Positions 3,391 to 57,599 of a stretch of 64,000 nt of DNA are shown here, in pieces. The translations under genes and the position numbers were made by a program. Location: positions 95,046,001-95,110,000 of the forward strand of contig OZ024745.1 of assembly GCA_964016885.1 (NCBI GenBank), given 5' to 3'. This DNA comes from Eledone cirrhosa. Lineage: Eukaryota. A model generated the notes under the pieces. The model saw only the letters and a program-made list of their open reading frames with translations. It was not told the origin of the DNA and did no database searches. Position 1 is the stretch's first letter. Each line of letters begins with the position of its first letter.

Positions 3391-3813
3391 TAATAGTTTT
3401 TTATATAGGCACAAGGCCAGCAATTTTGGGGTATGGGAAAATCGATTAAATTGACCCCAGTACGTTACTGGTGCTTTATTTTATCGACCCCGTAAGGATG
3501 CATGACAAAGTTAACCTCGGCGTGATTTGAACTCAGACCGTAAAGGGCCGTAACTCTGTGCTGCAAAGCATGGCGTCCGACTCTCTACCGGTACTGCCAA
3601 TCCACCGCTCATTATGTTTATAATGAGCGGTGGATTGGCAGTATCGGTAGAGAGTCGAAACGCCATGCTTTGCAGCATTGAGTTACGGCCCTTTATAATC
3701 TACGTTCAAATACCGCCGAGGTTAACTTTGCTTACGGGGGTCGATAAAATAAAGTACCAGTAATAAACAGGGTTAATTGCTAGCCTTGTGCCAAAAATAG
3801 AAACAATTATTAT
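3391..3813. mobile_element. Head-to-head pair of tRNA-derived SINEs (3391-3608 -, 3627-3813 +)
   Basis: Family consensus ggcggtggattggcagtatcggtagag...gagttcaaatccc...ctttcatccttacggggtcgataaaataaagtaccag...gtgccaaaagtagaaacaatta, with A/B-box-like motifs. Confidence 0.85.
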
Positions 3814-12432: not shown

Positions 12433-13094
12433 TAAATGGAATAGAATGAAACGAAATTTCATTTCTCACTCTTAGTACGGCACTTACTTAAATGTAAGTA
12501 TGTATGTATACGTACATACATATATGTATAGAGACATACAGTAGCATGTATATATATATATATACATACAGGCACACATATATATATGCACGTATCAGTT
12601 TACAGAACATTTATTATAATGTTCGCTTTGTTCGTTTGTAAACAAACGAACAGCATGATTTATGCCGTACAGTGTTCAGGCAACAACGTCACCTTTTTGT
12701 TCAACACTGACACAGGAGCGATGTACTAGTTTCAAGCTTGTTAGCTATCGTCAGCACCGTATACCTTTCTGCCAGATGGTTGAACGTCCGAAAGTATATA
12801 CTTTCCTTATGAAAATTAACGGTTGAGCAGCCTAATTTGCATATCGAGTGAGTTCAGTCGGGAGGGCACACCGAAAACGATAAATGGAATAGAATGAAAC
12901 GTAATTTCATTTCTCACTCTTAGTACGGCACTTACTTAAATATAAGTATGTATGTATACGCACATACATATATGTATACAGTTGAAAAAAAAGGTGACGT
13001 GGTTGCCTGAACATTGTACGGCGTAAATCAGGCTGTTCGTTTGTTTACAAACGAACAAAGCGAACATTATAATAAATGTTCGGTAAACTGATAC

Positions 13095-16326: not shown

Positions 16327-17128
16327 ATAATGTAACATGATATGAGGCCTAAAAATACTTGTTAACAGGAAAGTGGAAAACCTACATATGACAGAAAATA
16401 TGATGGTAAGAAAAAGATAGGAAAATAGAATAAAAAGAAAATAAGGAGAAAAAGGAAAATGAAAGTGAGGAGAGGAAAAAAAGAAAAAAAAAGAAAAAAG
16501 AAAGAAGGAAGAGAGAGAAAGAGAGAGAAAGACTTTTGATCAGGAACGCTGTCAAAATGAAAACAGCTGTAGATAACGGTTAAAAAGTAAATTGATGAGG
16601 TGTAAGTGCGAATATTATAGGTGTTCAAATATTAGAGGTCTAAAATATAGAAACTGGGTATATTATTTTATATTGGGTTTAAATACTAAAACTTGGATAA
16701 AGAAGTGAAAAAGTGTATTAATAAAATAAAATAAAATTAAATTAAAATAAGTATTAAAAAAAGATTTTTATATAAAATAAATTAAAATAAAATAAAAAAA
16801 TAAAAATACTCTATCTATGTCAAAATTAGAAATTTCTATTAAAAATCCATATATGTGGGGTACACTATTTAATTATTATTTAATATCAACAAGTAAATAA
16901 AGGAAATTGCTAGAATGATTTATAAACGTAGAAAAACATATGACGTCATAGTTTGTTTACAAAATCTACGAAGGTTTGAGTGAAAATTTAAGGCTATCGA
17001 AAAAAGGTCAAAGGCTTAAAATATGCTGAGAAAACTAAATTAATACATTGTAGAATATAATGAAATATGTGAAAAAAAATATATATATATAAAATATATA
17101 TATGTAAAAAGAATATATATGTAAAAAC

Positions 17129-19503
17129 ATGGATTGCTACAGCATCACAACTTCATTTAAAGACATTCCTATACCGGGAAAAACTGAATACACAAAACTT
17201 TTGATAGAAAAAGCGGACTCTTTCGTGCGCAGGCTCAGATGGATCGCACATTTCCATGACCAGCGATTAAAAGGAAATTGTTATAGAAAGGAACATAATA
17301 ACCTCAATTCATTATTTAACTCCAGAAGAAATTCTCCCTTTAATAAAAACTTATCACATTTTGAAAATGAATTAACTAAAATTATACGAGAACTTAAGTT
17401 CAAAAGAAACCCTTATCGAGGCCAGGGACACCTTATCAACCTTAAGAATAAAATTAATTACCTTAATTCTTCTAAAAACGTTTTAGTTCATTCTGACAAA
17501 ACAAACAATTTATATGGCATAAGTAAGGATAAATATAATAACCTTATCCTTAAAGAACTAAAAAAAATTATCGTAAAAGTACGTAGGATAATCTGGATTC
17601 TATCAATAGAGAAGCATATGAGATAATAACCAAACTCGGTATTGAGAAAAAAACAGAACCCTTCTTCCCAAGAATCCCGAGGATTAATCTGAAGGATCAT
17701 AAAAGAAATGTTCGAACTGACTTGCCTGTAAGACTAATTGCCCCTTCTAAATCTGACCTAGGGGTTGTTAATAAATCCATCTTGAATAGAATTATCCCAC
17801 AGGTTAGGTTTAAATCTCAACTAAATTTATGGTTGGGTTCATCCGATGTAATAGACTGGTTCAATGACCTAATTAATAAAAACAGACTAAAATATATTCA
17901 ATTAGACATTGCTAGCTATTACTCTTCTATTTCTCCTTCACTACTAAACAAGGCTCTCATATGCGTTAAAATACACGGACATCAAGTGAAGAAATTAACC
18001 TCATTCTCACCGCAAGGAAAACCACCTTGGAATTTAACAATGAATATTGGACAAGAGCGGGTACTGCCAACAATTTCGACATCACCATGGGTTCGTCGGA
18101 TTCAGCTCAACTGACCGACATAGTTGGAATTTTCATCTTGAACTCTTTAAATCGGAAAATTCCGCAACTTCGCGGTGGAATTTATCGTGATGATGCTCTT
18201 TTTACTGTCTCTAATTGTAACAAAGTAAACTTTAATATTATTAAGAAAAATATACTCGATCTATTTAAGCATCTTAACTTAAAAATTGAATTCGAGAATA
18301 ATGATAAATTAGCAAATTTCCTGGATATATCCCTTAATCTAGATACCGGCCTATATTACCCATATCATAAGGATAATGAGAACTTAAATTACGTTAACTT
18401 TAAATATAACCACCCTAATAATGTTAAAACTGCTATAGTCAGAAGTATGGAAAAAAGAATTTCTAAATTATCCTATAACAAAGATATCTTGGAAGCTAAT
18501 GCCATCTATTATAATAATGCGCTATCTAGGGCTGGATATCTAGACAAAAATTAGGTATACTAAGGAAACTAATCTTGGCAGAGCCTATAGTAACTCTAGT
18601 AATGTAGCTAATAATAATCATACCACTATCAAAAGGAGGAGACCTAGATATAAAAATATCCTTTTATTAATAATATCCCTAAATTAATTTTTATGGCTCT
18701 CTATAACAACTTCCCTCCTTCACATATATATAGCAAGATATTCAATAAGCATACTATTAAATTCTCATACTCTACTACCTCGAACATTTCTAAAATTATC
18801 TCAAGACATAATTCTAAAATATTAAAGAATAACACATATGCATCCAACCATGAGAGTCATAATAATAACACTATAAGGCCTGATGTCATGTTAAACTCTA
18901 GGCAAAATAACACAAATATAAATACGACGTCAAACGTAACTTTGAGGAATACATCGAATAGTAATGCAAATCTAGAAACTTTAGCACCTCCTTTAGTTAA
19001 TTCCACCACTCCAGTTCCTAATATAATTAACCCTGGGCCACTTGCCAATAACATTGTAAATAATCTTAATCGTAAATGCAACTGCCCTATTAGAACTACT
19101 TGTCCTCTTAGTAATTTCTGTTTCGATAAAAACCTAGTATATGAATGTAAAGTGGTAACTAGTACTAATATCTATACCTACATTGGCTCTACTTCTACCT
19201 CTTTTAAAGCAAGATTCTATAATCATTCTTCTACATTTAAATATCCACTTTAAAGGACCAGCACCGCACTCTCAGAGCTTATTTGGTCCTTACAAGACAA
19301 AAACATTAATTACGAAATTTCTTGGCGTAAAATCTATAACCCATCTCCATACTCCAATGCTTCCATATCTTGTTTGTAATTTATGTCTAGTTGAAAAATT
19401 AACCATTATCTCGAATTTCAACTCTATAATAAATAGAAGAACAGATTTATTTGGACTTTGTAATCATAAATCCTTCAAGACCTTTCACAGAGTATATAGC
19501 TAA
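17129..19503 (+). pseudogene. Frameshifted PLE polyprotein: reverse transcriptase + C-terminal GIY-YIG endonuclease
   Basis: Five ORF pieces carrying SDKT, DIASYYSSI, MGSSDSAQLTDIVG, YRDD, NFLDISLNL, CNC..CPL..C, VYECKV..YIGST..FKARFYNH and CNLCLVEK. Confidence 0.9.
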
Positions 19504-30620: not shown

Positions 30621-31863
30621 AATATACTAATAAAATAGCTTTGTGTATTTGTCCGTAACGCAGATGACTGGAGAAAGAAGGGGTGATTACGTTGACTGAG
30701 GAAGGAGGGTGTGATGACGATGACTGAGGAAGGAGGGGGGGATTACTTTGACTGAGGAAGGAAGGGATGGTTACGTTGACTGAGGAAGGAGGGTGTGATG
30801 ACGATGACTGAGGAAGGAAGGGGTGGTTACGTTGACTGAGGAAGAAGGGGTGATGACGATGACTGAGGAAGGAGGGTGTGATTACGTTGACTGGAGAAGG
30901 AGGGGGTGATTACGTTGACTGAGGAAGGAGGGGGGGATTACTTTGACTGAGGAAGGAAGGGATGGTTACGTTGACTGAGGAAGGAGGGTGTGATGACGAT
31001 GACTGAGGAAGGAAGGGGTGGTTACGTTGACTGAGGAAGGAGGGTGTGATTACGTTGACTGAGGAAGGAGGGGTGATTACGTTGACTGGAGAAGGAAGGG
31101 GTGATTACATTGACTGAGGAAGAATGGGGTGATTCAGTTGACTGAGGAAGGAGGGGGTGATTACGTTGACTGGAGAAGGAAGGGGTGATTACGTTGACTG
31201 GGGAAGGCGGGGGTGATTATGATGACAGGAGAAGGAAGGGGTGATTACGTTGACTAAGGAAAGAAGGGGTGATTACGTTGACTGGGGAAGGCGGGGGTGA
31301 TTACGTTGACTGAAGAAGGAGGGGGTGATTACGTTGACTGAGGAAGGAAGGGGCGATTACGTTGACTGGGGAAGGCGGGGGTGACACACTACAGAAAGTA
31401 GCGCCTAACATTTCTTACACCTGTGTGCGAATTGGCTACACACATTGGCTGTTATGATTATGTTAGTGTTTGTGTGTGTATATGTGTGTGCTTGTTTAAA
31501 ATATATCTATATATAATATTTGTGTGAGTGGATATGTGTTTGTGTGCGTTTATTTAGAAAGATACATGGACAATAGAATTACAAACACATACGCATCTAC
31601 ACATACATATATATAAACAGACACACCTAGACTAGAAAAAATAATTATTACATACACACACATCTATGTGATGACTGAGGGAGGAGGGGGGAGAAACTAT
31701 AGAGGTTCAGCGTTCTAAGATTCATCCCAACTGTGTATTTGTGTATTTGTATCACTTGTGTGAGTGAACCCGAAGGAACCAATCAACCAACAAACATCTC
31801 CTTTTTATATTATGTATAGATATTACAATTAGCCGTCATTTTTTACGGTACGGGGCCAGCTAG
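30621..31863 (+). mobile_element. Probable non-autonomous Helitron containing a minisatellite
   Basis: 5' tatactaataaaa. 3' hairpin ccgt...acgg then tacggggccagCTAG|t. No TIR or TSD. Confidence 0.55.
30665..31385. repeat. 28-bp purine-rich minisatellite, ~26 units
   Basis: Unit gactgaggaaggagggggtgattacgtt with variants. Confidence 0.92.
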
Positions 31864-34435: not shown

Positions 34436-34478
<43 letters not shown>

Positions 34479-34600
34479 AATATAGACATAGAATATTCGA
34501 AAATATTCTGTATGTTTATAATAAACATTTTGAAGACCTAATCGCTATAGAATAGAATACGTCACGTATTACAATTAGATTCTCGATAAAAGCAAGGGAA

Positions 34601-34643
34601 GTAATCTACGCGTTTCATTCTCGTTAGAAATCATCAGGACTAC
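34601..34643 (-). ncRNA. Same hammerhead on the - strand (copies at 34601, 34911, 35221, 35531)
   Basis: Exact reverse complement of 36010-36052, repeating every 310 bp. Confidence 0.92.
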
Positions 34644-36009
34644 ATATCCAGTGCTTTTATCGAGAATGACACAGCTAGAGACTTATAGAATACTTAGCTG
34701 TGTACAGGAACTGGTTTGAAAGAGCGGTTGCCGGTCCGGCAGAAATTAGAAATTGGAATAAATGCTCTGAAATAGCGATATATATGTGAATATAGACATA
34801 GAATATTCGAAAATATTCTGTATGTTTATAATAAACATTTTGAAGACCTAATCGCTATAGAATAGAATACGTCACGTATTACAATTAGATTCTCGATAAA
34901 AGCAAGGGAAGTAATCTACGCGTTTCATTCTCGTTAGAAATCATCAGGACTACATATCCAGTGCTTTTATCGAGAATGACACAGCTAGAGACTTATAGAA
35001 TACTTAGCTGTGTACAGGAACTGGTTTGAAAGAGCGGTTGCCGGTCCGGCAGAAATTAGAAATTGGAATAAATGCTCTGAAATAGCGATATATATGTGAA
35101 TATAGACATAGAATATTCGAAAATATTCTGTATGTTTATAATAAACATTTTGAAGACCTAATCGCTATAGAATAGAATACGTCACGTATTACAATTAGAT
35201 TCTCGATAAAAGCAAGGGAAGTAATCTACGCGTTTCATTCTCGTTAGAAATCATCAGGACTACATATCCAGTGCTTTTATCGAGAATGACACAGCTAGAG
35301 ACTTATAGAATACTTAGCTGTGTACAGGAACTGGTTTGAAAGAGCGGTTGCCGGTCCGGCAGAAATTAGAAATTGGAATAAATGCTCTGAAATAGCGATA
35401 TATATGTGAATATAGACATAGAATATTCGAAAATATTCTGTATGTTTATAATAAACATTTTGAAGACCTAATCGCTATAGAATAGAATACGTCACGTATT
35501 ACAATTAGATTCTCGATAAAAGCAAGGGAAGTAATCTACGCGTTTCATTCTCGTTAGAAATCATCAGGACTACATATCCAGTGCTTTTATCGAGAATGAC
35601 ACAGCTAGAGACTTATAGAATACTTAGCTGTGTACAGGAACTGGTTTGAAAGAGCGGTTGCCGGTCCGGCAGAAATTAGAAATTGGAATAAATGCTCTGA
35701 AATAGCGATATATATGTGAATATAGACATAGAATATTCGAAAATATTCTGTATGTTTATAATAAACATTTTGAATACGTGACGTATTCTATTCTATAGCG
35801 ATTAGGTCTTCAAAATGTTTATTATAAACATACAGAATATTTTCGAATATTCTATGTCTATATTCACATATATATCGCTATTTCAGAGCATTTATTCCAA
35901 TTTCTAATTTCTGCCGGACCGGCAACCGCTCTTTCAAACCAGTTCCTGTACACAGCTAAGTATTCTATAAGTCTCTAGCTGTGTCATTCTCGATAAAAGC
36001 ACTGGATAT

Positions 36010-36052
36010 GTAGTCCTGATGATTTCTAACGAGAATGAAACGCGTAGATTAC
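36010..36052 (+). ncRNA. Type I minimal hammerhead ribozyme, representative copy (+ copies start at 36010, 36320, 36630, 36940, 37250, 37560, 37870)
   Basis: GTAGTC-CTGATGA-tTTCT aacg AGAAt-GAAAC-GC-GTA-GATTAC. Stem I GTAGTC/GATTAC, canonical core, palindromic stem III ACGCGT, GUA triplet. Stem I is extended by a perfect 16-bp duplex, 35986-36001 with 36059-36074. Confidence 0.92.
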
Positions 36053-38065
36053 TTCCCTTGCTTTTATCGAGAATCTAATTGTAATACGTGACGTATTCTA
36101 TTCTATAGCGATTAGGTCTTCAAAATGTTTATTATAAACATACAGAATATTTTCGAATATTCTATGTCTATATTCACATATATATCGCTATTTCAGAGCA
36201 TTTATTCCAATTTCTAATTTCTGCCGGACCGGCAACCGCTCTTTCAAACCAGTTCCTGTACACAGCTAAGTATTCTATAAGTCTCTAGCTGTGTCATTCT
36301 CGATAAAAGCACTGGATATGTAGTCCTGATGATTTCTAACGAGAATGAAACGCGTAGATTACTTCCCTTGCTTTTATCGAGAATCTAATTGTAATACGTG
36401 ACGTATTCTATTCTATAGCGATTAGGTCTTCAAAATGTTTATTATAAACATACAGAATATTTTCGAATATTCTATGTCTATATTCACATATATATCGCTA
36501 TTTCAGAGCATTTATTCCAATTTCTAATTTCTGCCGGACCGGCAACCGCTCTTTCAAACCAGTTCCTGTACACAGCTAAGTATTCTATAAGTCTCTAGCT
36601 GTGTCATTCTCGATAAAAGCACTGGATATGTAGTCCTGATGATTTCTAACGAGAATGAAACGCGTAGATTACTTCCCTTGCTTTTATCGAGAATCTAATT
36701 GTAATACGTGACGTATTCTATTCTATAGCGATTAGGTCTTCAAAATGTTTATTATAAACATACAGAATATTTTCGAATATTCTATGTCTATATTCACATA
36801 TATATCGCTATTTCAGAGCATTTATTCCAATTTCTAATTTCTGCCGGACCGGCAACCGCTCTTTCAAACCAGTTCCTGTACACAGCTAAGTATTCTATAA
36901 GTCTCTAGCTGTGTCATTCTCGATAAAAGCACTGGATATGTAGTCCTGATGATTTCTAACGAGAATGAAACGCGTAGATTACTTCCCTTGCTTTTATCGA
37001 GAATCTAATTGTAATACGTGACGTATTCTATTCTATAGCGATTAGGTCTTCAAAATGTTTATTATAAACATACAGAATATTTTCGAATATTCTATGTCTA
37101 TATTCACATATATATCGCTATTTCAGAGCATTTATTCCAATTTCTAATTTCTGCCGGACCGGCAACCGCTCTTTCAAACCAGTTCCTGTACACAGCTAAG
37201 TATTCTATAAGTCTCTAGCTGTGTCATTCTCGATAAAAGCACTGGATATGTAGTCCTGATGATTTCTAACGAGAATGAAACGCGTAGATTACTTCCCTTG
37301 CTTTTATCGAGAATCTAATTGTAATACGTGACGTATTCTATTCTATAGCGATTAGGTCTTCAAAATGTTTATTATAAACATACAGAATATTTTCGAATAT
37401 TCTATGTCTATATTCACATATATATCGCTATTTCAGAGCATTTATTCCAATTTCTAATTTCTGCCGGACCGGCAACCGCTCTTTCAAACCAGTTCCTGTA
37501 CACAGCTAAGTATTCTATAAGTCTCTAGCTGTGTCATTCTCGATAAAAGCACTGGATATGTAGTCCTGATGATTTCTAACGAGAATGAAACGCGTAGATT
37601 ACTTCCCTTGCTTTTATCGAGAATCTAATTGTAATACGTGACGTATTCTATTCTATAGCGATTAGGTCTTCAAAATGTTTATTATAAACATACAGAATAT
37701 TTTCGAATATTCTATGTCTATATTCACATATATATCGCTATTTCAGAGCATTTATTCCAATTTCTAATTTCTGCCGGACCGGCAACCGCTCTTTCAAACC
37801 AGTTCCTGTACACAGCTAAGTATTCTATAAGTCTCTAGCTGTGTCATTCTCGATAAAAGCACTGGATATGTAGTCCTGATGATTTCTAACGAGAATGAAA
37901 CGCGTAGATTACTTCCCTTGCTTTTATCGAGAATCTAATTGTAATACGTGACGTATTCTATTCTATAGCGATTAGGTCTTCAAAATGTTTATTATAAACA
38001 TACAGAATATTTTCGAATATTCTATGTCTATATTCACATATATATCGCTATTTCAGAGCATTTAT

Positions 38066-38185
<120 letters not shown>

Positions 38186-38202
38186 ATATATATATATATA
38201 TG

Positions 38203-38263
<61 letters not shown>

Positions 38264-38280
38264 ATATATATATATATATG

Positions 38281-38396
<116 letters not shown>

Positions 38397-45970: not shown

Positions 45971-46799
45971 ATAAAACATAGTGAAATATTTGGAAAGTCT
46001 CCTCAAGAAATGCAAAAAATATATATATAAATAAAGGTAATGCAATAGACATATGAAATATATAAAAAAAATGTTAAAGAAATATAGTTAGGTGTGTGTA
46101 TATGCATGTATATACACTCACAGATGTACATATGTATGTATGTACAAATGCGTGTGTATTGCGAAAATGTGTGCGTAAATATATGTATGAGGGCAAGTAT
46201 ATTTGTGTATATGTAACTACGAATACAGATATAATATGAGTTGAAAATAAAATGGTTGACACGTATACAGAAAACAGGGTATTAGATACATTATATGAAT
46301 ATGAAGGCACGCGTATAAACACACACACACGCGCGTACACTTATATCCGGAAGAAAAAGAGGTAAGGGAGTGTAATAGTTAAAAGAAAGTGTCATTCTCG
46401 ATATATTTATAAAAATGGAACAATATATTACAAAGAAATTTGTTTTAAAAGAAAGAGAATGTAGTCAATTAACACTAGAGAAGAGAAAAGAAAAAGGAAA
46501 ACAAACAAGGTACACGCGTACATACACATATATCTATAAGAAACATATATCTATAAAAAAATATATATATACACGCAATACGTGCAGACAAAAGCGTATG
46601 CAAGCGTACATACATACACAGGATGCACATATATATATACATATCTCATATATATATGAGAAAGAACATACATATTATATATATCAAAAAACCTAAATAT
46701 TGTATATATAAAAAAACATATTGTATATACAAAAATAAAAATAAAAATGAAAATAAAAAGTTGGGAATACGACAAATAATAAATAAAAAATAAAAATTC

Positions 46800-47413
46800 C
46801 TTGACCTCTTAGATAAACATTTTCCTCCTAGTCATAGATATTATAAGATATTTAATAGAAATGTAGTTAAGATCAGTTACTCTTATTGCCCATCAATGAA
46901 GTCTAAGATCACTAATTCAAATCATACGAGAACAAATCGAGCATACAGTTGCAGGAAGCCGGATGAATGCCCATTACAGGGCGAATGTAACACCAAATCT
47001 GTTGTTTATGAGGCCAAAGTGACACCTTTAATCAATAACCAGCCAGCCAGGAGTGGGCGATATGTTGGCATGACCCAGGACAGGTTTAAAACCACGTTTT
47101 ATGCACATGTCGCTTCTTTTAAGCACTCCGATAACGAACAGCAACGGCCCTCGCAAGTAAGGTGTGGGAATTCAAGGATAAAAACATCCCGTATTCTATC
47201 GATTGGTCTATTTTAGACCATTCGAGGGAGTACCAAAGGGTCACAAAGAATTGTTCTTTGTGTACCACAGAAAAATATAGGATTTTGCTAAACTTGAAAG
47301 CCACTTCTGCTTGCCTGAACTCAAAGACCGAGATCTTCAGATGTTGTCCTCATCTGAAATCACATCTGATCTGTAACTGGATTGACATTCTTATGATAAC
47401 TCACCCACCTTGA
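46800..47413 (+). pseudogene. PLE (Naiad-like) C-terminal GIY-YIG endonuclease fragment, frameshifted
   Basis: HFPPSHRYYKIFN..., SCRKPDECPLQGEC..VVYEAKV..YVGMT..FK..FYAH and CSLCTTEK..EIFRCCPH; homologous to 18693-19503. Confidence 0.85.
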
Positions 47414-53963: not shown

Positions 53964-56900
53964 TTACAGAATCTTCCTTAGTATATGGGCAGTTCCCATT
54001 AGTACTATCTTTTGTATTTCTCCTATACGCGGGTTTCCTGGGATTTGCGATAAGTAATCATTAGACCCCTTAGGTATCATTCCCAGAGCGCCTACAACCA
54101 CTGGTATTGTTTTAGTTCTCAATTTCCACATTTTTCCAATTTCTATCTCCAGGTCCTTATACTTGCTCAATTTTTCAAATATTTTATAGATACATTCTTG
54201 TCTATTGGAACAGACATATCAATTAGCAGGCATACCCTCTTTTTAAAGTCCTTCAATATTATATCAGGTCTATTTGCATCTATTTTTCGGTCTGTTTGAA
54301 TGCTAAAGTTCCACAAGATTGAGATGTGATCTTTTTCAAGTATGGGAGGTGGTTGATGCTCCCACCAATTCTTTTGATGGGGCAGGTCAAAATGCTTACA
54401 CATTATCCAATGTATGTATTGTGCAGCTCTGTCATGCCTGTTTAGGTATTCGGTTGGAGCTATAGGACTGCACATTGAAATTATATGGTCAATGGTCTCT
54501 GGTTGTTTTTTGCATACACGGCATAATGGGCTGCATCCATTTTTTATTATGTTGGCTTGGTAATTTTTTGTTGGCAGACACTGATCTTGTGCCGATATAA
54601 TCAGTCCTTCAGTCTCCGATTTCAGTCCAGAGGATGCCAACCCCTGATGGGTTAAAGTTTTGTCAACATCAGGATTGTTAGCTCGCTCCGGGTATTTTCC
54701 ATACAGAGGCTTTTCTTGCCATTTCTTAGCCAGTTTCTGTAGCAGTTCTTTCTTTGCAGTTACTTTTACCTGCTTTGCTTTTTCTGTGTTTTCCATTTCA
54801 GCAGTAAATGGGACTTCTGAAATTTGTAGTCCATTACTGTATCTTTGTGCATCTTTTGTAATGGAATATGATCTGTTGATGCTTTGGTGTTTCAAAACGA
54901 GTTTGATCATCCAATCATGTGATTCCCTTAGATATGTAGATAATCCAATTGTCGCAGTTTTCAACGCAATGTCTAACTGGATTAACCCACGTCCTCCTTC
55001 TTTCCTAGGGAGATATATTCTATCTATATCTGCCTTAGGGTGATGCAATGTGCATGGTTAAGAATTTTCGAAATTTTGTATCGAGCTTACGGATCTCTGT
55101 GCTTGACCAGTTGATGACATTGTAACTGTAGGTTACTACTGGTATGGCAAGCGTGTTTATGGCATCGATCCTATTCCTTGCATTCAATTCCGTTCTTAAG
55201 ATTGCTCTTACTCTGCGGTAACATTCCTTCCTTATCCTTTCCCTCATTGTCGAGTGCTTGATTCCGTCTCCTTCACAAACACCTAGATATTTGTAAGTTT
55301 TTTCTTGATCAAGTTCTCTTATCACGTTCCCCCGATCAAGATTAATGTCTGAACTCTTCAGCAGCTTTCCTCTGGTGAACGTTGCTTTGGCGCATTTATC
55401 TAGTCCAAACTCCATTTTAATGTCATCACTGAACTGCTCCACAGTGGATAATAGCCCTTGCAATTGTTCATCATTTTTTGCAAATAGTTTGAGGTCATCC
55501 ATGTAGAACAGGTGATTAATGGTTTTGTCATAGACTTTATATCCATGTTTTGTTTCATTGAGCATTTTACTTAATGGTATAAGTGCGATGCAGAATAAAA
55601 GCGGTGATAAAGAGTCACCCTGAAAAATTCCACAATTAATATTAACTTCTCCAGCTTCCAGTGATTTTGTTTCACTATTCAAAAGGAGTGTCGTTTTCCA
55701 TGTCTTCATACTGAATGACAAAAACCTCCTGACAACGGGGGATATTTTGAAAATCTCTAAACATTTTTCAATCCAACTGTGTGGCAAACTATCGAATGCT
55801 TTTTTATAATCTATCCAAGCAATCGATAGATTTTTGTGTCTATTATGACAATCTTCCAGTATCATTTTGTTAACCAGAAGCTGATCCATACAGCCATATG
55901 AGCCTCGTTTACACCCTTTCTGCTCAATGGGAAATAGGTCATTTGTTATCAGGTGGTCATATGTGTATTCAGTTAGGACATGATGTTAACATTTTATACA
56001 TTGTGGTTAAGCAAGTTATCGGTCTGTAATTTTTGGGATTGTTTGTCTCATCATTCTTCGGAAGCAGGAATGTAATGCCGTTAACTAACCATGATGGTAT
56101 CTTTTCTGGCTCCTTAACTATTTCATTGTAAAGTCGGGCTAACAGCTCATGAGACTCTGTGAAGGCATTTATCCAACAGTTTTGTATTTTGTCTTTTCCT
56201 GGGGATTTCCATTTGCTGGTTTTTCTTAGAGCCAAGCGCAACTGTTCAACTGTTATATTTTCCCATATTTGTTCCTCAAGGTGAGCTGTATCTTTCATTT
56301 GTCTGTCTATCCATGGGGCATGTATGTTATGAACTTTTTCTTCGGCCCGGGATCTTTTCCCAGAATTCTTGCACTTCCTCCTTGGGTGGTATTGATTTAG
56401 CAGTTATTGTTGACATGCCATATTTTCTGTAGAAGTTTCTTTGGTTGTTTTTGAACATATTATTGTCCTTATAGAATCTAGATCGTTTTTCAAAGCGCCT
56501 TATACGAGCAGCTTTGGCCGACACTTTTTGCTTGATTATTTCTATCTGCATGTCTATGTCACATGTTGATTTTATACTTTACTTTTTTTTCAATTTTCTA
56601 AGTTTAGTTTGTTTAACATGTTCACCTACATTATAGTTTGTTAAAATTTCGGTGGATTGGCAGTATAGGTAGAGGGATTGGCAGTATAGGTAGAGGGTCG
56701 GACGCCATGCTTTGACGCATAGAGTTACGGCCCTTGCCATTCTGAGTTCAAATCCCGCCGAGGTTAACTTTGCCTTTCATCCTTACGGGGTCGATAAAAT
56801 AAAGTACCAGTAATACACTGGGTAATTGCTGGCCTTGTACCAAAAGTAGAAACAATTATAGTTTGTTAAAATTTCTATGTCAGATCGGAGAAGGTTTATT

Positions 56901-57355
56901 TGGCGATTGATGTTCTCTTGCCAAGTAGATTTCTTGTGGGAATTCCTTTGTTTTTTCATCTTCACTCCACATAAGTGAGTGGTGACTTTAGCCGATGTAT
57001 AATAGAGATGATTTAAATCAGTAATGTTTAGTTTGTTTGTGATGATAATGTTTTTGAGAATTATGTTAGTCTTGTATATTATCTTTTGGTTCTGTTTGGA
57101 GTTCTGGATCTTAGGGAGGGTGTCTCGTTGCTCCATGTCAGATTCTTTCATTTTCATCCATTCGATCATAATTTCATCCTTCAAGTTGGCAAGTTCATTC
57201 TCATTCATTTCTTTATCATTTACGATCTCATTATTTTCATTTGGAGTTTCATCCTGAGCATGCACTCCTTCCACTTTTTCGATCCTTTCTTTAATTTGTT
57301 CTGTTGCCAGTGATTCCTCCCCAACCCTGGGGTTCGAAGTGTTACAGTTTACCAC
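53964..57355 (-). pseudogene. Frameshifted RT + CCHC zinc knuckle + PD-(D/E)xK endonuclease ORF
   Basis: WKSPGKD, NYRPITCL, WIDYKKAFDSLPH, GIFQGDSLSPLLF, YMDD, GGRGL, CRVC..ETIDHIISMC, RHD, RPDI..LID..KYKDL. Confidence 0.9.
56651..56854 (+). mobile_element. SINE inserted into the Dong-like ORF with a 21-bp TSD
   Basis: attatagtttgttaaaatttc at 56630-56650 and 56855-56875; duplicated SINE 5' end. Confidence 0.92.
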
Positions 57356-57407
57356 ATTTTCACTGACACATGTTTCATTTTCCCTTCGCTGACTTTGTGC
57401 TAATAGC

Positions 57408-57533
<126 letters not shown>

Positions 57534-57599
57534 TCAGCTTCATATTTGAAAGACTTAATTATATAGTTTTATTATCAGTGTATTTTATGTGACCACCAT

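Follow-up and report, generated by a model that had tools for sequence, protein, structure and literature searches.

Avsunviroids and viroid-like satellite RNAs are circular RNAs of a size similar to that of the repeat unit described here, with a branched fold and a hammerhead ribozyme, and avsunviroids carry ribozymes in both polarities. Animal non-LTR retrozymes have been described from coral, mussel and axolotl by Cervera and de la Pena (2020; PMC7229834), and vertebrate non-LTR retrozymes have been interpreted as non-autonomous Penelope-like derivatives by Li, Clavereau and Pollet (bioRxiv 10.64898/2026.07.22.740005), in whose text one of nine predicted Xenopus retrozymes is reported to cut in vitro. 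In the text of both sources, the mobility of animal retrozymes by means of a Penelope-like partner and a circular template is put forward as a hypothesis.

Penelope-like elements themselves leave inverted 5' copies, carry a tail of 30–40 nt at one end and target microsatellites, with (TA)n being the target of the Hydra clade; the mechanism behind this inverted, tailed insertion is termed undefined in the survey of Craig et al. (2021; PMC8557442). Frangieh et al. (2024; PMC11167929) found that a purified Penelope-like protein, predicted to form a dimer, nicks and extends both target strands, that it starts at two adjacent internal sites marking the limits of the tail, and that the hammerhead is dispensable for insertion in vitro. 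Here we compare with these systems a tandem array from Eledone cirrhosa (assembly GCA_964016885.1, contig OZ024745.1), lying in the 64,000-nt stretch at positions 95,046,001–95,110,000 that was analyzed as a whole and is referred to as the window.

A 310-nt repeat unit in two inverted arms

The unit starts just past a GUA cleavage triplet and ends at the next one, and its copies form two inverted arms that meet head to head within an (AT)n tract (Table 1). The short end point corresponds to an internal ATATATAT at 36177–36185 (unit positions 130–138), and the tail end point to 36211 (unit position 164) or, less often, to unit positions of about 169–172. The array contains no LTR and no open frame of at least 90 aa, except for frames that run into (AT)n.

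Table 1. Coordinates of the retrozyme array, its predicted helices and its hammerhead, as positions in the window
Feature	Position	Strand	Remarks
Retrozyme unit, cleavage site to next cleavage site	36047..36356	+	310 nt, 34.5% GC; predicted circular RNA monomer
Left arm, 4.2 identical units	34468..35774	-	Outer end is the short end point
Right arm, 7.4 identical units	35773..38071	+	Outer end is the tail end point
Head-to-head junction of both arms	35773..35774	.	2-nt overlap
Tail	38046..38071	+	26 nt (unit positions 139–164), at the right outer end, absent from the other outer end
(AT)n target, left part	34438..34475	.	
(AT)n target, right part	38070..38393	.	
Two fixed insertion end points within the unit	36177..36216	+	Putative reverse-transcription start sites
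16-bp rod	36059–36074 with 36296–36311	+	Closes the hammerhead domain; best covariation
Hairpin 1, 6 bp, 3-nt loop	36083..36097	+	Family B has a hairpin of different sequence and register here
Long-range 8-bp stem	36105–36112 with 36184–36191	+	Encloses hairpins 2 and 3
Hairpin 2	36125–36141	+	Two-sided changes in family B
Hairpin 3	36144–36163	+	Two-sided changes in family B
Hairpin 5, 5 bp, 3-nt loop	36222..36234	+	Kept in family B, mostly via one-sided changes
Stem 6, 9 bp	36260..36294	+	Out of register in family B
Type I hammerhead	36320..36362	+	Read from sequence by inspection
Hammerhead stem I	36320–36325 with 36357–36362	+	
Hammerhead core CUGAUGA	36326–36332	+	
Hammerhead stem II	36333–36346	+	
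Hammerhead GAAA	36347–36350	+	
One-pair stem III with palindrome ACGCGT	36350–36355	+	Predicted cut after 36356

A complete hammerhead core and GUA cut site are present in every unit of the array, and among the variants of this family, hereafter family A, core position 7 (the free one) varies. An Rfam scan of the whole window and of 36200–36520 returned no hammerhead and no other credible family, and a hammerhead motif scan of both strands placed the ribozyme on the plus strand of the unit only, with none on the minus strand. Across the 3.0-Gb genome the 43-nt ribozyme sequence recurs 4,033 times without a mismatch. An alternative 9-bp helix, 36294–36302 with 36340–36348, involves the 3' strand of the rod together with stem II and the core and would block the ribozyme; the commonest variant, G to A at position 294 (54 of 84 loci), breaks this helix.

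Predicted fold of the unit

The original prediction described the monomer as structured almost throughout and named six stems besides the hammerhead. All six are present where they had been placed (36083, 36125, 36144, 36105/36184, 36223 and 36260/36286), and the unit folded as a circle reached z −4.5 against dinucleotide shuffles, none of 200 being as good; folded as a linear molecule it reached z −3.9, with one of 100 as good. "Almost throughout" nevertheless overstates a fold that beats shuffled sequence, since the best structure pairs 60% of the bases, and pairs with a probability above 0.5 involve 152 of the 310. The accompanying claim of many helices in 310 nt holds for longer stems, where five perfect stems of at least 8 bp compare with 0.9 for shuffled sequence, none of the 200 shuffles having as many, but not at 7 bp, where six against 3.8 is not significant (39 of 200). 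Three hairpins had been drawn with 1-nt loops; real loops need 3 nt, which leaves stems of 5–7 bp. What had been called a UUCG loop is a TTCG closed by U–A, not C–G, and with other loops in its place in relatives it does not qualify as a conserved UUCG tetraloop. Overlooked altogether was the strongest helix, a rod of 16 perfect base pairs.

With z −4.5 as a linear and −5.2 as a circular molecule, the minus strand folds at least as well, so that energy cannot name the strand; the hammerhead does. Scores of this order are infrequent in the genome without being exceptional: two of the 24 tiles tested as genome background, from 124 eligible, score lower than z −4.5. Given the minus-strand fold and these tiles, the z-score alone is no proof of selection.

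Selection on the fold

An older family B, with units of about 318 nt, is 61–62% identical to family A and alignable with it over the whole unit; its tail has 3,333 exact matches in the genome. The A/B alignment comprised five A and 17 B rows from 93 distinct units. Within the named structure, 29 of 80 pairs are changed on both sides (23.7 in shuffles, of which 2 of 500 did as well; 5–14 in slid controls), whereas one covariation measure, the count of further pair types, lies under its shuffles (66 versus 73.6). Because the rows are related, amounting to only about four independent lineages, two-sided changes were recounted on four lineage representatives. On this count the rod has two-sided changes at eight of its 16 pairs, stem I at four of six, stem II at two of five, hairpin 3 at two of eight and hairpin 2 at one of seven, and none were found in hairpin 5 or the long-range 8-bp stem. 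Hairpin 1, the 8-bp stem and stem 6 are out of register in family B, where 48–55% of cells are paired. The four B units that were folded, from the 17, have helices in the same places, with z values of −5.4, −2.5, −4.4 and −5.0, and G–U pairs are tolerated in the A/B comparison. RNAalifold recovered 34 pairs only from the raw alignment, since decayed family B copies and register shifts mask several helices.

The predicted catalytic core carries a compensated C3–G8 to U3–A8 swap: among 32 distinct B hammerheads, C3–G8 occurs in 16, U3–A8 in 15 and U3–G8 in one, while C3–A8 occurs in none. This swap is described as an active covariation of the tertiary pair (PMC3088659).

Variants within family A were compared across 822 units from 97 loci, counting substitutions only and leaving indels out. 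Changes that break a pair or hit the core made up four of 30 array-fixed substitutions against 34 of 90 single-copy changes (p 0.013), the latter possibly including assembly errors; for substitutions fixed at two or more loci the figure was 0 of 15 against the same 34 of 90 (p 0.002). The structure model used here was refined after a first pass, and the purely predicted fold gave 5 of 30 against 28 of 90. As an indicator of strand, G–U asymmetry was not significant (7 versus 1 among fixed variants, 11 versus 12 among single copies; p 0.095). Among pair-keeping fixed substitutions at paired sites, seven of nine are A to G, which could mean that wobble pairs are tolerated or that edited RNA was copied back into DNA.

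These comparisons support selection on an RNA fold, and the support is firmest where the rod and the ribozyme are concerned. The original prediction had argued for such selection on a branched fold, and against a passive DNA satellite, from the number of helices. Two-sided changes, the compensated core swap and the pair-sparing fixed variants bear it out, but only in part: three of the six named helices are out of register in family B, and one more has no two-sided change among the four lineages.

Anatomy of the insertions across the genome

Counted by exact sequence patterns, the genome contains 1,078 tail-end junctions with AT and, by a stricter pattern, 510 short-end junctions with AT. We sampled 105 stretches holding 107 insertions, of which seven were cut by a stretch edge or gap, leaving 100 whole; besides the window, all sampled loci lie within the first 257 Mb of contig C1, and most of the 100 were chosen via the tail end. 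Head-to-head pairs account for 95 of the 100. Among these two-armed insertions, 94 have one outer end at unit position 126–140 and the other at 160–170, and 89 have an AT repeat on both flanks. Given the AT overlap, the short and tail ends lie about 26–34 nt apart. The two-armed form also prevails among loci chosen by the ribozyme (9 of 10) and by the short end (36 of 46, the remaining 10 having one arm only; 2 of 48 were set aside). The median insertion has 7.8 units in all, and single arms reach 27 units and more.

Inner ends, by comparison with the outer ones, fall anywhere in the unit, with five of 188 at the cut site (4.2 expected). Of 77 arm junctions measured, 33 have 1–5 nt of homology, nine are blunt and 35 have added bases. 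Junctions between successive units show no excess of changes (5 of 113, 4.4 expected). In sequencing run X5, which has 659 contigs on the unit, loose ends in (AT)n likewise fall at these outer end points, 36185 and 36216.

A long-read fold-back artifact was considered as a source of the inversion and rejected: the arms end at different fixed points, have different flanks and recur at about 100 loci, with a random junction position.

Variants shared between the arms

Fifty loci have two or more full units in each arm, and in 47 of them the majority variant is common to both arms, against a chance expectation of 0.17. Across 84 loci there are 30 fixed haplotypes, 19 of them seen once, and only 0.06% of bases depart from the locus majority. 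Each haplotype confined to one locus occupies the entire array and, wherever full units are present in both inverted arms, both of these. Since templates differ in the variants they carry, the pattern shows that the two arms usually derive from one template sequence. Variants present in 2–6 copies within an array were seen in 10 cases, for example in six of 27 units in L074.

At three loci (L060, L139 and L140) the arms differ in variant, which shows that two templates can go into one insertion; with three such loci among 50, a single template is not obligatory.

A candidate Penelope-like partner

Two Penelope-like families in the genome have the same combination of short and tail ends in (AT)n. 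In one of them, family D, the ribozyme motif occurs 16,924 times and open frames of 758 codons are numerous. The predicted family D protein of 713 aa contains the motifs RWR, DKT, YRDD and CxCx5C, and three copies differ by 5–7 residues. These assignments as Penelope-like are made by motif, Pfam being silent for five of six frames, including all Penelope-like pieces. Among 183 hammerhead motifs, that of family D is the closest match outside family A to the A core and stem II. Outside this 28-nt hammerhead match, no sequence shared between family A and the Penelope-like families was found; a comparison of A with the 3' untranslated part of family D gave AT-rich noise only, and the stretches examined contained no hybrid insertion with one A arm and one Penelope-like arm. 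A Hydra-clade Penelope-like reverse transcriptase is thus the likely mobilizing partner as regards clade, while the lack of wider homology or a hybrid insertion leaves the family unproven.

Penelope-like sequences also occur elsewhere in the window. A broken Hydra-like Penelope element lies at window positions 17108–19503 (+), with DKT and YRDD motifs, an endonuclease-like end and a frame interrupted several times; members of its family end in (AT)n with a short and a tail end, and the 3' repeat of the family includes a hammerhead. A fragment at 46794–47413 (+) resembles a Penelope-like endonuclease end and has no Pfam match. At another locus, L219:4700–5900 (G000:C14), a head-to-head array of family B directly abuts a Penelope-like frame at its 5'-truncated end, the two not being separated by (AT)n, possibly representing one hybrid insertion or else a deletion; the junction is ambiguous.

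Proposed mechanism and alternatives

We consider it probable that the unit is a young non-LTR retrozyme, whose RNA is predicted to cut itself into 310-nt monomers; these would close into structured circles, which a Hydra-clade Penelope-like reverse transcriptase likely copies into (AT)n. The proposal builds on features observed directly, namely the unit, its motif and copy numbers, the arms with their two ends and (AT)n flanks, the shared variants, the covariation, and intact Hydra-clade elements of the same anatomy. Arrays would be transcribed, and the transcript would be cut as a double hammerhead via the ACGCGT palindrome, the 310-nt monomers then being ligated into circles. A dimer of the Hydra-clade protein would nick both strands of (AT)n, and each nick would prime at one of two RNA sites about 26–34 nt apart. 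The short end may be primed by annealing to the internal AU repeat and the tail end just downstream. Both enzymes could then go several times round the template, and the far ends of the two cDNAs would be joined, with short homology or extra bases at the join. Only RNAs that fold, cut and are recognized would yield new copies, which would keep the fold in place.

A circular template would account for a one-locus variant in every unit of both arms, for inner ends that ignore the cut site and for clean unit junctions. Against the circle step, an uncut multimeric transcript would likewise give no cut-site pile-up, and possibly the same element and Penelope-like enzyme use as template a long uncut read-through transcript of the parent array, with the uniformity and length of arrays maintained through DNA-level slippage, unequal exchange or conversion. 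Such an arrangement agrees with the finding that hammerhead cleavage is unneeded for insertion in vitro (PMC11167929), with the local amplification of tandem repeats favored in the text of bioRxiv 10.64898/2026.07.22.740005, and with the variants in 2–6 copies in a few arrays, by which DNA-level duplication does occur. However, the 19 one-locus haplotypes that fill their arrays imply that each array went through a bottleneck of one unit, which was then multiplied, a compensated swap preserves the ribozyme core, and arrays with so little internal change are too young for much conversion. We regard an uncut template, the strongest competing reading, as unlikely.

Sequences matching the unit in public sequencing runs bear on a further alternative. 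Words of the unit are found at 65–100% in 20 public runs with 18 organism codes, from 17 studies. Eight of 24 listed runs were examined at contig level, and six of the eight hold a single near-identical contig, five at depth 3–26 and one at 365, with 0–3 differences. These matches would fit a viroid-like RNA that also replicates RNA-to-RNA and crosses between organisms, the genomic arrays being integrated by-products; if true, this would explain near-identical copies under 18 organism codes and make the arrays the integration record of an animal viroid-like agent. The depth of 3–26 and the 0–3 differences of five of the six contigs, which are mostly variants of this genome, speak against it, as do a family-B-like piece also present in run X1, the continuation of the X20 contig into unrelated sequence, the lack of a ribozyme motif on the minus strand, and the zero matches obtained when metagenome and viral contigs were searched with the unit. 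No RNA run is among the runs listed with the unit's words, and the Hi-C run X23 has no reads on the unit, the organism's presence in that run not being established. The other-organism runs have simpler explanations in close kin, in diet or environmental DNA, or in high-copy host nucleic acid that was carried over, and we judge a replicating viroid-like agent very improbable. Horizontal transfer from the 18 organism codes was also considered and not accepted, as carry-over or close kin fit.

Least probable is a passive DNA satellite, with hairpins that arise by chance or act at the DNA level and inversions made by fold-back or repair: the minus-strand fold, the better-folding background tiles and the three shifted helices are compatible with it, but it is largely refuted by the same two end points at about 1,000 dispersed loci, by the sparing of pairs among variants fixed at two or more loci, and by tolerated G–U pairs together with the compensated swap in a tertiary RNA pair.

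Other repeats in the window

Repeats of a 421-nt family, whose type I hammerhead has the build of that of family A but different stems, occur on the minus strand at 1545–2352 and near 12750, and also at seven sampled loci, some copies being inverted; the family is likely another retrozyme. The tile at 3411–3720 has a folding z of −19.7 and is probably a long inverted repeat. At 54167–57568 (-) lies a broken LINE-like element whose reverse transcriptase domain matches RVT_1 (E 2.4e-24), and at 30665–31384 a G-rich minisatellite of 25.8 copies of a 28-nt repeat.

Comparison with known systems

The class, its stable fold and the proposed partner are already known (PMC7229834; bioRxiv 10.64898/2026.07.22.740005), and such a fold is by itself unremarkable in a retrozyme; what makes this locus valuable is the insertion footprint, since about 1,000 very young insertions bear the partner's signature on an element that encodes no protein. 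We did not find head-to-head, tailed, (AT)n-targeted retrozyme insertions or arm-shared variants described elsewhere, in a literature search that was short on subscription papers. The main text of PMC7229834 makes no mention of head-to-head arms, fixed short and tail ends or (AT)n targeting, and the text of bioRxiv 10.64898/2026.07.22.740005 gives no tail, head-to-head or inverted-arm account; the supplements of either may bear on these points. The reagents for a direct test can also be named from these insertions: the 310-nt circle, its two predicted start sites, (AT)n as the target and the intact protein of the Hydra clade. The families moreover amount to a natural mutational scan of a predicted animal circular RNA.

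With its size and GC content, tandem hammerheads, dispersed loci, stable predicted circle and absence of a frame or LTR, family A has the characteristics of a non-LTR retrozyme. It shares with the animal retrozymes described in PMC7229834 tandem units of 150–450 bp that are less than 50% GC and contain one type I hammerhead each, the lack of a coding frame and a predicted stable self-paired circle, and with axolotl HHR_Amex1, which cuts as a dimer, the one-pair stem III and palindromic tetraloop. The sequence is species-specific, and expression and circles have been shown for those retrozymes, whereas here they are predicted. The vertebrate retrozymes of bioRxiv 10.64898/2026.07.22.740005 belong to the same class and have the same proposed partner, assigned there from co-occurrence and, in Xenopus, pLTR homology; here the link is made through insertion anatomy, and the apparent pLTR homology is confined to the core and stem II of the hammerhead.

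The viroid-type character that the original prediction had noted goes no further than resemblance: the unit is genome-encoded and belongs to a dispersed retroelement, a non-LTR retrozyme. Unlike viroids and viroid-like satellite RNAs, which are not known to have a DNA form in the host genome, it has about 1,000 genomic loci and thousands of genomic copies, with the ribozyme on one strand only.

The insertions themselves have the inverted truncated copy and one-end tail of Penelope-like insertions and the (TA)n target of the Hydra clade. Hydra-clade Penelope-like elements (PMC8557442) have the same inverted 5'-truncated copy, tail at one end, (TA)n targets and hammerhead. The Poseidon element of Anolis has, in vitro, two internal starts and extends both target strands (PMC11167929), as the end points of family A suggest for the retrozyme. 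The retrozyme unit differs from Penelope-like elements in encoding neither reverse transcriptase nor GIY-YIG endonuclease, the protein being found elsewhere in the genome, and in the makeup of its arms, which consist of many perfect 310-nt repeats, whereas those of the resident Penelope-like elements are mostly short and truncated.
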